Virus record (IMG/VR): IMGVR_UViG_3300031418_000001
DNA: 64,000 bases
Origin: a virus
Taxonomy: Duplodnaviria; Heunggongvirae; Uroviricota; Caudoviricetes
Direction: 5' to 3' (one strand)
Part shown: one piece after another, positions 1-64,000 of the stretch
How positions within the stretch are numbered: position 1 is the first letter of the stretch
How the letters are laid out: the number at the start of each line of letters is the position of its first letter
Made by a program: the position numbers and the translations under genes
Notes under the pieces: model-generated
The model's input: the letters and a program-made list of their open reading frames with translations, nothing else
Databases searched by the model: none
Told to the model about the DNA's origin: nothing

Positions 1-1
1 T

Positions 2-640
2 GAAGCAGATGACTTTATTGCACGTTGGGTACAAACCCATCCAGAGGATGATCATATTATCCTAAGTACTGATAAAGATTTCCATCAGTTAATTGCATCT
101 AACGTTAAGCAATATAATCCAGTACAAGAATTCCTTTATACCATTGAAGGTGTGTTTGATGTTCGTAAAAAGAACAAACCTGCAACGGATAAAAAAGGAA
201 TTGAGTTACCTGCACCAGATCCTGATTTCTCATTATTTCTTAAGTGTGTTAAAGGCGATCCGTCAGATAACGTATTCAGTGCATCACCTGGTGCGAGAAT
301 GAAAAGTACTAAGAAAGCTGTTGGAATTCAAGAAGCCTATAATGACCGAAATAACAAAGGTTATGCATGGAACAGCTTCATGAATCAACAATGGACAGAT
401 CACTTAGGTAATACCCGTATTGTACGCGAAGCATATGAACATAACCAGATGCTGGTTGACCTGACTATGCAACCTGAATATGTTATTAATATTCTTGATG
501 ACACTATTAAAAATTCATCCAAGAAAAGTGTACCAATGATTGGTGTTCACTTCCTGAGATTTGCAGCTAAGTATGAACTTAAATACATAAATGATAATCC
601 AGAAGCGTACATTAAACTTTTCAGCAAAAAGGATGAATAA
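2..640 (+). CDS. rnh: T4 RNase H-like 5'-3' exonuclease (5' truncated by window edge)
   Basis: Frame open from nt 2: EADDFIA...[11 protein letters not shown] and KGDPSDNV...PG motifs of FEN/5'-3' exonucleases. Confidence 0.9.
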
Positions 641-1140
641 TGGCAATCTTACGAAAATTAACTGAGTTTTCTTATATTTTAGAAACCGACACTAAAGAAA
701 AAATTGGAATTGTTGTAGATTACAGTAGCTCCAGTTCAGATAAAACTGGAATTGAATTTTTCAGTACTCGTGGAAGAATTGCCTTTGAATCTATGGATTC
801 ATTGGCTTCTTTAATCGGGGATAAAATTCAAATGGAAGAAGTAAAAGTACAGGACTCTGAAAGCAAGAAGTTCATTGATGATTATCCTATCAATGAAACT
901 GATTCAGTACATGATGTGAAAGATGATGAAGAATTGAATATGAAAACATTCTCCAAGAGTAAGCGTTCCAAAAAACGTTTCCTACCTGGATGGTGGATTG
1001 TATACAACACAGAAACGTCTACAGCAACGCCACGTCTTACTATAAGCGTTGACACGCACAATGAGAAAGAACTTGATAAAACGCTGTATGGGCCGTTTAA
1101 GACCTATATGGAAGTTACGTTTCAGATGAAAAAGCTCTAA
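640..1140 (+). CDS. hypothetical protein
   Basis: 166 aa ORF coupled to the upstream stop (TAATG). Confidence 0.75.
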   Translation: MAILRKLTEFSYILETDTKEKIGIVVDYSSSSSDKTGIEFFSTRGRIAFESMDSLASLIGDKIQMEEVKVQDSESKKFIDDYPINETDSVHDVKDDEELNMKTFSKSKRSKKRFLPGWWIVYNTETSTATPRLTISVDTHNEKELDKTLYGPFKTYMEVTFQMKKL

Positions 1141-1219
1141 ATTCGTATATAAAAATTTTTGAGTACTAAATATCGGTGAAGGGGAGAGAAAATCCCCTCG
1201 ATATTTAGGAGAATTATAT

Positions 1220-1957
1220 ATGAATTATACGCAAGAACAGGTTGATGAGTTTATTCTTGCATCCGAGAGTGTGCATTATTTTGCAAGCCTATGCTTACCT
1301 CAAGTTTACAAGCAACAGACTCACCTATTAGATACTTATGTTTCCGATGAAAATGAATTGTCAATTGTGGCACGACAAATTGGAAACACAACTATCCAAG
1401 CCATTTTTGTTCTTTGGCGTCTTATCTTTAAATCACATAAAACAACATGCTATACATCTTATAATATGAGTTTGTGTGAAAACTTTATCAATAAGATTAT
1501 TGATATGAATGATAAGTTACCGGAACACATCAAGGCTGAATTTACAGCAGTAACCAGATATACGCTCACTAATAAAACTAACAGTAGAGTACTTGCACGA
1601 CCGATGAATTCTAATTCATTACGTGGTTTATCAGTTGATACTCTAATTGTTGATTTATTCCATTTTCTGTCAAAGAAAAATTTAAGCGATTTTTTACATT
1701 CATCATTTCCAGCCCTTGCAGCACGGTCTGGTAAGTTAATAATGAGTACGAATATAAACCCCAATGGGTTTAAACTGTATGAATTTTTTAATGAATTTAA
1801 TATCTACCACGATTGTGGAATTAGTGTAATACCCTTTAATAAATGTACGCATTATTCAGAGTTAAAAGCCTCAAGGCTGAAGCAGTACTTAAGTACTGAA
1901 CATTACTTATCTGAATATTGCTGTATTGATCGGGAGGGTATTGACTATGCAAAGTAA
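1220..1957 (+). CDS. degenerate terminase large subunit ATPase-domain paralog
   Basis: ARQIGNTT and [14 protein letters not shown] align with ARQMGKTT and [14 protein letters not shown] of the next gene; AGGAG RBS. Confidence 0.75.
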
Positions 1958-62186: not shown

Positions 62187-62197
62187 GATGAGGTATT

Positions 62198-62695
62198 ATG
62201 TTTGTTTTTGAAGATGAAGAACCAGAAGAATTATATGATCCTGAACTGGATGGTATCAGTCATATAAACACTTACTCAAAAGGTAAAACTGAACTTGGAC
62301 GAATGTTATCGAATTTCTACTATGCACCATTTGAGCATCCAGAATACGGTAAATTCGACTCAGTAGAAGGTTTCTGGTACTGGTATCAGACAGGCCAGCA
62401 ACATGAAGTACTGCGTACCCTGCACGGTTATAAAGCTAAGCAGGAAGGTAAGAAGTATGAAAGGGTCGATATTGACGTTGAGTACTTCTATGAAAAAGTC
62501 CTTGAATGCATAGGATTGAAGATCATAAATAGTCCAGAAATTTATGAAGCATTAAAGTTAAGTACTCTTCCATTTGTACATTATTACCGGTATGGTGACG
62601 AGAATCCTAAAGTCATTAAAGTACCGTGCGAATGGATGATGAACGGAATTAACAATATTAGATTTATTATTAAACAACATGGAGCTATACAATGA
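62198..62695 (+). CDS. NADAR / T4 gp30.3-like protein
   Basis: LSNFYYAPF...FDSVEGFW...AKQEGK. Confidence 0.6.
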   Translation: MFVFEDEEPEELYDPELDGISHINTYSKGKTELGRMLSNFYYAPFEHPEYGKFDSVEGFWYWYQTGQQHEVLRTLHGYKAKQEGKKYERVDIDVEYFYEKVLECIGLKIINSPEIYEALKLSTLPFVHYYRYGDENPKVIKVPCEWMMNGINNIRFIIKQHGAIQ

Positions 62696-63831
62696 AAAGT
62701 ACTAAAACATACCAAGAAGCAATTGAATTCCTAAACAAACTACCACTTGGTACTTCAGAACTTGATGTAATTATTAACTACTCTAAAGATAATGTAGATA
62801 TTCATTTTAAACAGGATGAAGGTAGTGCAATTCCGCATTTCATTCACTCTAAAGCTATCCAGTACATTGAAGATATTGACAAAGCTATTCGCAAAGAGCA
62901 TGAAGTTCCGCTAAAAGCAGTTGACACTCGTAAATCTCTCAGTACTCAATCTTATTCGTTGAAGACTGCTCTTGAACTACTTAAACATTCTTATGATATT
63001 AAATTCAATGAACTTGAGATTCACGTTCATCCTAAATCAGTAACAGTCATTTCCAGACAAAATAACGAAGAACTACCATTTATTCCTGAAAATGGAGTTA
63101 AATTACTTCTTGATTCTGGTATTCAAAGAATTGAAGATGCATTAAAAGTACTCCAGGAAAAAGAGAAAAAAGATCAACGTCTTTTTGAAGAAACGTTAAA
63201 AGAAAGTCCACTACCTAAAGTAAAAGACTTTTTTGAGAATTTAATGTCTAAACTGGATAATATTGATATGTCTCCAATTGAAAGCATTCGTGAGAAAGCA
63301 GAACAACTAATCAAAGATCAATGTTACGATAAATGGGATGATACACCATTTGGTCGTTCTGTTGTTGAAATGAAAAAGTTACTTGAATCACTTGATTCCA
63401 TCACTGAAGATTCATACTTCGAGAAAATTAAAAGTAAATTGCAGTCTTATAATCGCCAAGTAATCGCCCTGAATGATTCTCGTAAAGAACTTGATAAGCT
63501 ATTCTCTGAACTACCAAATAAGGATAAGTTCAGTGTTAACTATGATCAAGCTGGATTTGTTGATATTGTACAAGTACCATTAGTATCTTTCATTAAGCGT
63601 ACTGGTATTCGTTATGCTAATGCAGAAGGTACTAAAATTGAAGGTTTTGTTTATGAAATTCAAGCTGATGGTAGTTATATTGAATTACTTCAGTATGACG
63701 TAAATTCTATTAATTACTTCAATGATGACATTATTGTTGCTGAAGAAAAAGTACCATTCGAACGCTTCACGATCACCAAGTCAGGAAACCGTACATTTGC
63801 AGTCGAAGTCATTGACACGCCAGTGTTTTAA
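62692..63831 (+). CDS. hypothetical protein
   Basis: 379 aa ORF with GGAG RBS. Confidence 0.7.
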   Translation: MKSTKTYQEAIEFLNKLPLGTSELDVIINYSKDNVDIHFKQDEGSAIPHFIHSKAIQYIEDIDKAIRKEHEVPLKAVDTRKSLSTQSYSLKTALELLKHSYDIKFNELEIHVHPKSVTVISRQNNEELPFIPENGVKLLLDSGIQRIEDALKVLQEKEKKDQRLFEETLKESPLPKVKDFFENLMSKLDNIDMSPIESIREKAEQLIKDQCYDKWDDTPFGRSVVEMKKLLESLDSITEDSYFEKIKSKLQSYNRQVIALNDSRKELDKLFSELPNKDKFSVNYDQAGFVDIVQVPLVSFIKRTGIRYANAEGTKIEGFVYEIQADGSYIELLQYDVNSINYFNDDIIVAEEKVPFERFTITKSGNRTFAVEVIDTPVF

Positions 63832-63870
63832 ATGGTAAAATTCCCCATCAATTCAAAGGTGGGGATAAAA

Positions 63871-64000
63871 ATGTATCGTTATCAGTTAGAGCAAGAATTA
63901 CCAAAATTTCAGCATTTGCTGTTTGCTAATAAAGAAACAGCACTTGCATCCGGTATTGAAGGAACTGTTTATATTGGTCATCCGGCAGTACATCATGTTT
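63871..64000 (+). CDS. hypothetical protein (3' truncated)
   Basis: ATG 63871, frame open to the window end. Confidence 0.5.
   Translation, partial: MYRYQLEQELPKFQHLLFANKETALASGIEGTVYIGHPAVHHV

Follow-up and report, generated by a model that had tools for sequence, protein, structure and literature searches.

An AGTACT palindrome densely iterated in a RaK2-like jumbo phage lineage and under apparent selection as a DNA-level word

The virus record IMGVR_UViG_3300031418_000001 (Caudoviricetes) was analyzed over a stretch of 64,000 nucleotides, termed the window, with respect to the hexameric palindrome AGTACT, which is spread over its whole length. The window has a G+C content of 35.0% and 84 called genes, of which 80 lie on the plus strand (~95% on one strand). 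Its gene block, named by synteny with the 349-kb Xanthomonas phage XaC1 and other relatives, runs from the terminase through gp32-like and UvsX-like proteins, helicases, primase, NrdA/B, dihydrofolate reductase, RNase H, Dda and topoisomerase II to the clamp loader and TerD/TelA. Collinearity with XaC1 extends across its replication and virion block, at ~73% nucleotide identity, and 70 of the 84 genes have XaC1 orthologues in conserved order with a mean amino-acid identity of 64%. The large subunit of topoisomerase II shares 64–72% identity with its counterparts in 72 RaK2-like jumbo phages infecting Escherichia, Klebsiella, Salmonella, Erwinia, Yersinia, Cronobacter, Pectobacterium and Serratia, and several studies of phyllosphere and plant metagenomes have yielded near-identical DNA. 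Based on gene order and sequence identity, we assign the window to a new RaK2-like ("group 2.2") jumbo phage of phyllosphere metagenomes.

AGTACT occurs 177 times in the window, an 8.2-fold excess over the 21.5 copies (0.34 per kb) given by base composition, and its core GTAC occurs 567 times versus 205 expected. An earlier note on this DNA, made from the sequence alone, had called AGTACT a highly iterated palindrome expected at about 0.35 per kb; this figure, every position it quoted (65, 305, 763, 1162, 1588, 1884, 1892 and seven within 52221–52860) and the commonness of one-off variants (GGTACT 57, AGTACC 44, AGTACA 67) agree with our counts. Ranked by z-score, AGTACT is first among all 4096 hexamers, the following ranks being taken by extensions of AGTACT itself (AAGTAC, GTACTT, CAGTAC, GTACTG). 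Shuffling synonymous codons within genes, a comparison that the note had proposed together with the hexamer ranking, yielded 55.7 ± 6.2 copies (z 19.5). In a stricter shuffle, third positions were permuted only among codons sharing the gene, the amino acid, the first two bases and the following base, and proteins, per-gene codon usage and dinucleotide counts were all verified to be exactly unchanged. Here 115.3 ± 6.0 copies were obtained, and no trial out of 500 gave more than 133 (z 10.2), so that the excess survives precisely the type of shuffle which the note had expected to abolish it if the idea were wrong. This null model is over-conservative, because AGTACT itself shapes codon usage and junction dinucleotides. 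Highly iterated palindromes are recognized by counts several-fold above both Markov and codon-aware expectation, and the corresponding figures for AGTACT are 177 observed against 21.5, 55.7 and 115.3. Our literature searches found no published account of AGTACT enrichment in phages.

The palindrome is found in all three codon phases, as AGT-ACT (67), xxA-GTA-CTx (73) and xAG-TAC-Txx (25), and the choice of the codon depends on its neighbor. Among 128 Ser-Thr pairs, 68 are coded AGT-ACT, versus 13% expected from codon use elsewhere; AGT makes up 79% of the serine codons before threonine and 28% elsewhere, and GTA makes up 73% of the valine codons before leucine and 43% elsewhere. Summed over the three phases, AGTACT takes up 167 of the 310 synonymous opportunities (54%). 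Even the proteins are bent: the observed-to-expected ratio is 1.64 for Ser-Thr versus 0.88 for Thr-Ser and 1.41 for Val-Leu versus 0.94 for Leu-Val, and Ser-Thr, Val-Leu and Lys-Tyr all rank in the top ten of inflated dipeptides, the Ser-Thr and Val-Leu inflation indicating that the pressure extends to the protein sequence. Despite 95% of the genes lying on one strand, the two orientations are balanced (AGTAC 320 versus GTACT 302; CAGTAC 75 versus GTACTG 75). The 4.1 kb of window DNA without a called gene contain 10 AGTACT versus 1.4 expected (~7-fold), about six of which are truly intergenic, and the 28.5 kb of noncoding DNA in XaC1 contain 150 versus 9.7 expected (15-fold). Together, the three phases, the neighbor-dependent codons, the bent proteins, the strand symmetry and the noncoding enrichment indicate a pressure on duplex DNA and not on translation. 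The note's statements that the word is present in all phases and in intergenic DNA, and that a single codon preference is insufficient to explain it, are thereby borne out, and we are highly confident that AGTACT is a DNA-level word under selection. Read as mutation–selection balance, the Ser-Thr data imply a scaled selection S of ~2–3 per site.

The same data bear on the possibility that the excess is a by-product of AT-rich codon usage, amino-acid composition and the avoidance of other words. AGT, ACT, GTA and TAC are indeed common codons in the window, and the strict shuffle already yields 115 of the 177 copies; however, the observed count lies above all 500 strict shuffles, codon choice is neighbor-dependent in three phases, noncoding DNA is enriched as well, and no other palindrome with two G/C exceeds 1.6-fold. 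We regard this explanation as largely refuted and extremely improbable, and the comparison with AT-rich outgroup phages given below points the same way.

The excess is graded around the GTAC core. Among the NGTACN words of the window, AGTACT (8.2-fold) is followed by GGTACT (4.7-fold), AGTACC (4.0-fold) and the other single-flank variants (2.3–2.8-fold), whereas words with neither A before nor T after GTAC are at 1.0–2.1-fold, apart from GGTACC and CGTACG, which are both absent from the window. This gradation indicates that the two half-sites contribute roughly multiplicatively. Changes at position 2 or 5 return the count to about expectation (0.7–1.5-fold). At cleanly synonymous positions flanking the hexamer, the window shows little preference except that T is avoided before the core, and because this preference is small in the window lineage, the abundance of AAGTACTT (42 copies) mostly reflects base composition. 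In RaK2, PBECO4 and XbC2, and most of all in the siphovirus family described below, C before and G after the core are favored, giving CAGTACTG, whereas this preference is weak in the window, XaC1 and GAP32.

Individual sites are conserved. When the genes were aligned with those of XaC1 codon by codon, AGTACT stood in place at 64 of 143 window sites (45%), versus 18% for control hexamers, and where the amino acids are kept the proportion rises to 59 of 68 (87%) versus 38% for control hexamers, exceeding the neutral level as is typical of highly iterated palindromes. Conserved Ser-Thr pairs are coded AGT-ACT in 59% of cases in the window and in 73% in XaC1, and the two genomes agree beyond independence (Fisher P = 0.001 for Ser-Thr and 9e-7 for Val-Leu sites). 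Turnover is nevertheless considerable, as more than half of the window sites and two thirds of the XaC1 sites are not shared, mostly at changed amino acids.

Along the window the 177 sites (positions 1–64000) have a mean spacing of 358 bp, with 6–19 sites per 4 kb throughout and a largest gap of 1726 bp. Nearly every gene carries AGTACT, genes without an XaC1 orthologue being as rich as core genes, so that the genome-wide spread over all phases and noncoding DNA expected of an iterated palindrome is present, with no gap above 1.73 kb. The spacing analysis proposed in the note gave a near-random distribution with a deficit below ~20 bp; pair distances are flat beyond 20 bp, and neither a preferred spacing nor helical phasing was found. 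With a second site inside 30 bp, usage of opportunities drops from ~0.6 to ~0.5. Gaps of 6–30 bp number 77 in XaC1 versus 89 expected (P = 0.02), and the window has 4 gaps of 31–60 bp versus 8.5 expected (P = 0.016). The effect on usage becomes weak once per-gene usage is kept, and repulsion between sites was not retained as an explanation.

The densest stretch quoted in the note, seven sites in 640 bp at 52221–52860, lies inside two conserved genes in which 4 of 5 (51634–52404) and 5 of 8 (52406–53200) opportunities are used. The dihydrofolate reductase gene (33003–33494, plus strand; named by synteny with XaC1) carries five sites in 492 bp and uses 5 of 5 opportunities despite its protein being only 47% identical to that of XaC1. 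The longest AGTACT-free stretch is found in the terminase large-subunit gene (1926–3554, plus strand), where 0 of 3 opportunities are used; with 177 sites, chance alone would be expected to leave a gap this long. Intergenic copies include 55714–55719, which directly follows a stop codon and precedes a GC-rich hairpin, and similar ones at 1162, 35588, 57584 and 60350. A terminator-like hairpin at 40304–40321 (plus strand; −24.2 kcal/mol, z −4.7) lies 3′ of the gene 39669–40295 and is formed by an AGTACT arm (40306) and a GGTACT arm followed by a T run. A second hairpin at 57539–57558 (plus strand) pairs a GGGGTACT arm with a AGTACCCC arm, both containing GTAC and neither containing AGTACT exactly. 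Of the two hairpin-stem sites in the note, the one at 40306 is therefore real, whereas at 57551 the sequence reads AGTACC.

The terminase large subunit itself is encoded by two overlapping open reading frames in the window (1220–3554), likewise in XaC1. The first (1220–1957) is 31% and the second (1926–3554) 83% identical to its XaC1 counterpart, suggesting from these identities that the amino-terminal part was replaced or has diverged fast. Between nrdA and nrdB the window contains an open reading frame of 254 amino acids (27084–27848) with no Pfam match; at this position GAP32 has an unrelated GIY-YIG-like endonuclease, and PBECO4 and RaK2 have nothing, so the site looks like a hotspot of inserted genes. 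A GIY-YIG-like endonuclease shared by GAP32 and one of the siphoviruses introduced below was considered as a reader of AGTACT and rejected, being a mobile gene and not homologous to the window gene at that position.

To place the window among its relatives, AGTACT was compared with the control word TCATGA, which is AGTACT read backwards and has the same composition; counts are for whole genomes unless stated. XaC1 has 1356 AGTACT versus 118 expected by base composition (in 42-kb pieces), PBECO4 891 versus 135 control words, Serratia phage BF 1072 versus 152, Pectobacterium phage CBB 1235 versus 187 and Salmonella phage Munch 850 versus 149, and RaK2, GAP32 and XbC2 show 6.5–7.2-fold excesses in 42-kb pieces. 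All nine of the enterobacterial-type relatives tested have the excess. It is missing from the T4-like E. coli phage RB18 (28 AGTACT, 57 control), from Pseudomonas phage PA5oct (15 and 40), a described relative of the RaK2-like clade, and from Agrobacterium phage Atu_ph07 (25 and 82), the nearest outgroup by topoisomerase. The AGTACT excess is thus a lineage signature of RaK2-like jumbo phages with enteric-type hosts. RB18 and PA5oct are likewise AT-rich and have half or less of the control count, which argues further against the by-product explanation; an effect of codons, tRNAs or composition was rejected on these depleted genomes and Atu_ph07 together with the context dependence and the noncoding enrichment.

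Within XaC1 the word is most frequent in the early-gene region (0–30 kb), with 6.5–8.3 AGTACT per kb versus 2–5 elsewhere, or about twice the density, and with an opportunity usage of 0.65 versus 0.56 in the rest. The genes of this region are short and under low constraint; its noncoding density reaches 10.4 per kb and its Ser-Thr ratio 2.6. This density indicates that the preferred level is at least one site per 100 bp and that coding capacity sets the limit. The same region contains, at 10.2–22.5 kb, five near-identical sigma-70-like early promoters of the form AAAAGTAC-TTGCAA-17 bp ending GAGTACTT-TATAAT-GTACTT, in which GTAC words adjoin both the −35 and the −10 box, and near which AAAAAGTACTT arrays with an 11-bp period are found. 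No promoter of this type is present in the window.

IMG/VR was scanned for densely clustered AGTACT. Among the matches listed, which also included other enriched loci, only one lineage besides the RaK2-like phages combined a genome-wide excess with the absence of GCGC. It is an unrelated family of ~30-kb temperate siphoviruses with a lambda-like tail module, a large serine recombinase and 37–42% G+C, found as prophages in Leclercia, Phytobacter and Enterobacter and having no close cultured relative. Each ~30-kb genome carries 85–136 AGTACT, 9–14-fold above expectation, and no GCGC. The Leclercia, Phytobacter and Enterobacter host genomes have ~0.1 AGTACT per kb, half of their control-word count, resulting in a 30–50-fold contrast in density between phage and host. 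The siphoviruses were compared by BLASTP and 123 profile hidden Markov models with the window, with XaC1 and with four other relatives represented by 42-kb pieces, and share with them only a T4-type lysozyme; their endolysin is 42–44% identical to a XaC1 lysozyme (197782–198279).

The abundance of AGTACT coincides with a purge of other palindromes. In the window, CTAG is absent, although composition predicts 205 copies and the strict shuffle still gives 31 ± 4. GCGC is absent versus 59 expected and AAGCTT versus 21.5, ACTAGT, TCTAGA and CCATGG do not occur, and ATCGAT has a single copy. XaC1 retains CTAG (0.47-fold) and AAGCTT (0.70-fold), so that these two bans are specific to the window lineage, and they hint at the restriction systems of the host of the window phage. 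In XaC1, GCGC is absent versus 327 expected, ~20 of the 24 palindromic hexamers that contain four G/C are missing or almost missing (34 expected each) and all eight with six G/C are absent (10 expected each). The siphovirus family shows the same near-total purge of restriction-type palindromes, and GCGC is zero in every AGTACT-enriched genome. Palindromes with two G/C range from 0.2- to 1.6-fold, save AGTACT at 8–11-fold, and the thoroughness of this avoidance makes the single exception look all the more deliberate. With its relaxed flanks and complete CTAG ban, the window represents a new plant-associated lineage. As a separate observation, TGCA is at 0.26-fold in XbC2 (217466–259448) versus 1.6–2.0-fold in the window and the other relatives, and modification of TGCAT has been reported for Kaldavass, an XbC2-like Erwinia phage (PMC11780129).

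The absence of GCGC raises the possibility of a molecular drive that brings the phage no benefit, either through methylation-linked short-patch repair, as has been proposed for the cyanobacterial HIP1 word and for CCWGG in E. coli, or through decay of methylated (R)GCGC(Y) to GTAC. GTAC is the exact product of a double C-to-T change in GCGC, the most enriched forms are of the type R-GTAC-Y (AGTACT, GGTACT, AGTACC) and mirror RGCGCY, and such a drive would affect unrelated phages alike. The mass balance fails, however, since ~59 missing GCGC stand against 362 extra GTAC in the window and the single-step intermediates GTGC, GCAC, AGTGCT and AGCACT are only at 1.4–2.0-fold versus 8.2-fold for AGTACT; deamination of GCGC on both strands was rejected on these grounds. 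A ratchet of methylation and deamination resembling very-short-patch repair was rejected as well, because the transition neighbors of AGTACT are not depleted (AGTATT 1.5-fold, AATACT 0.94-fold). A shared mutational bias is also unlikely given that the jumbo phages are copied by a polymerase of their own and the siphoviruses by that of the host. Furthermore, nanopore data for two members of the RaK2-like clade show GATC, CCWGG and TGCAT to be modified and AGTACT not, with the number of modified motifs equal to the number of predicted methyltransferases (PMC11780129). The RE_ScaI profile (PF09569) gave no match at E ≤ 1 in XaC1, PBECO4, RaK2, GAP32 or XbC2, and a phage-borne ScaI-like restriction–modification system was rejected for lack of a cognate enzyme gene in these five relatives. 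Judged by the two modification profiles and the five-genome search, all from relatives of the window phage, AGTACT is not seen to overlap a methyltransferase target as HIP1 does. Altogether we consider a drive improbable. Of the note's suggestion of a selected word or a methylation/repair ratchet comparable to HIP1, the likeness to HIP1 in density and behavior holds, whereas the ratchet is not supported.

An enzyme might use AGTACT as its substrate, for instance a nicking enzyme providing entry for replication, recombination or clamp loading, or a type II topoisomerase at its cleavage site. Type II topoisomerases cut with a 4-base stagger, which would fit A-GTAC-T; the symmetry of the type IIA enzymes suits a 4-bp core with A on one side and T on the other, and the window encodes both topoisomerase II subunits (40397–43790). 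In addition, nicks linked to a motif that is itself enriched are on record for another phage group (PMC11780129). The same study, which reported nicks in a Pseudomonas phage, reports none for its two RaK2-like phages (PMC11780129), and the siphoviruses have no topoisomerase gene. Mapped gyrase sites follow a long degenerate motif that is read indirectly and is no sharp hexamer (PMC6379681), and a gyrase-type site was rejected for this degeneracy. A role as enzyme substrate accordingly ranks among the poorer candidates, with little probability in our estimate. A polar signal like Chi or the FtsK-orienting polar sequences (KOPS) was discarded, as AGTACT is its own reverse complement and the hosts have it at half the frequency of the control word.

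We think it slightly favored that a protein reads AGTACT, and from the palindromic, roughly multiplicative half-sites we infer a reader with two-fold symmetry. This reader may be encoded by the phages, each lineage having its own AGTACT-binding protein that marks, organizes, condenses or protects the chromosome or distinguishes it from host DNA, such as an internal virion protein or an early protein, with an analogous protein in the siphoviruses that is convergent or has diverged beyond recognition. Consistent with this, the excess tracks the RaK2-like clade and ends at the distant PA5oct and Atu_ph07, flank preferences are lineage-specific as if readers co-evolved with genomes, the early region of XaC1 with its small fast-evolving genes is about twice as dense and has GTAC words beside its promoter boxes, and phage and host densities differ 30–50-fold. 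Against it, the jumbo phages and siphoviruses have only the lysozyme in common (BLASTP and profile hidden Markov models), the siphoviruses have only about nine unassigned early genes, and no candidate was found. We hold a phage-encoded reader to be unlikely, though it is the foremost of the rival explanations.

The presence of the word in two unrelated lineages from the same host order, the lack of a shared DNA-binding gene and the depletion in relatives on other orders lead us to lean modestly to a reader of the enterobacterial cell. A host-side origin is nevertheless a tentative proposal, which on balance we would doubt. In its most specific form, AGTACT would be a "pass word" for an unrecognized enterobacterial factor, either a host protein or a common resident element, and two unrelated lineages that purged their restriction palindromes, one of giant lytic and one of small temperate phages, would have converged on it, filling their unmodified AT-rich DNA with the word almost to saturation, to escape or exploit this factor; we rate this version as distinctly unlikely, slightly below the phage-encoded reader.

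Taken together, the reading we prefer, and to which we assign about an even chance, is that natural selection maintains AGTACT at the level of the DNA duplex, where a factor with two-fold symmetry most likely reads it. Neither the proteins nor their translation would be the target of this selection, and each copy would be a docking site for a symmetric reader of the duplex, for example a protein dimer, with a specificity resembling that of restriction enzymes or small repressors. The core would comprise 6 bp with half-sites contributing approximately multiplicatively and flanks of little weight in the window lineage, and the denser the sites, the greater the benefit would be, to a density of one per 100 bp or more. 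The reader, or the pressure, would belong to the enterobacterial cell or to a common partner and would act on unmodified AT-rich phage DNA.

Several points weigh against this interpretation. No AGTACT reader was found in the present analysis, and the lineage-specific flank preference is not obviously predicted by a single conserved reader. Diminishing returns for closely spaced sites show up only weakly. The high equilibrium usage (59–73% of conserved Ser-Thr pairs) partly explains the positional conservation, so that a steady sequence-specific drive could mimic selection. Most Enterobacterales phages, such as RB18, do not have the excess, and a general host reader must therefore matter only to certain lifestyles. 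Finally, XaC1 and XbC2 are recorded as Xanthomonas phages, which, if this host is real, weakens the case for a reader specific to Enterobacterales.

A single palindrome at about half of all positions permitted by the proteins, driven so hard that amino-acid pairs are shifted, speaks for a strong interaction at the DNA level, of a kind undescribed for phages. Its easily computed signature marks a whole clade of jumbo phages that are therapeutic candidates against E. coli, Klebsiella, Salmonella, Erwinia and others, and its recurrence in an unrelated prophage family offers two independent systems for finding the reader. A host factor, if true, would add a new layer of phage–host recognition in Enterobacterales; a phage factor, if true, would be a new way to mark or organize very large viral chromosomes.

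Among known systems, the closest in sequence is the binding site of the nucleoid-occlusion factor SlmA (GTGAGTACTCAC), whose central six bases are AGTACT and whose reader is a dimer with a distribution centered on Enterobacterales and their relatives. The SlmA site requires G and T at positions 1–2 and A and C at positions 11–12 (PMC3020112), and these GT/AC ends are missing at the phage sites. The window contains no full SlmA site and 10 GTR-flanked half-sites versus ~11 by chance, and a decoy or titration of SlmA was rejected accordingly.

Phages are expected to lose palindromes, and ScaI-type enzymes cutting AGTACT exist. The window follows restriction-site avoidance for CTAG, GCGC, AAGCTT and almost every palindromic hexamer that has four or six G/C, whereas AGTACT goes the opposite way. 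Chi (GCTGGTGG), KOPS, the DNA uptake sequences (DUS) and uptake signal sequences (USS), as well as Chi-rich lambdoid phages, resemble the present case as genome-wide words under weak per-site selection that are read by a DNA-tracking or DNA-binding machine. They differ in being asymmetric, biased in orientation and abundant in the host, which the phages mimic, whereas AGTACT is symmetric and in the hosts occurs at about half the frequency of the control word.

The nearest parallel in behavior is HIP1 (GCGATCGC) of cyanobacteria, a short palindrome that likewise recurs about once per 250–400 bp in all frames and in noncoding DNA above codon-aware expectation, with sites conserved in place beyond neutral sequence; neither word has a known reader. 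HIP1 is an octamer, whereas AGTACT is a hexamer, is found in virus genomes whose hosts are poor in it, contains no Dam/Dcm-type methylation core, was not called as modified in two relatives and coexists with a near-complete purge of other palindromes. The case of AGTACT may also inform the 30-year-old problem of HIP1.

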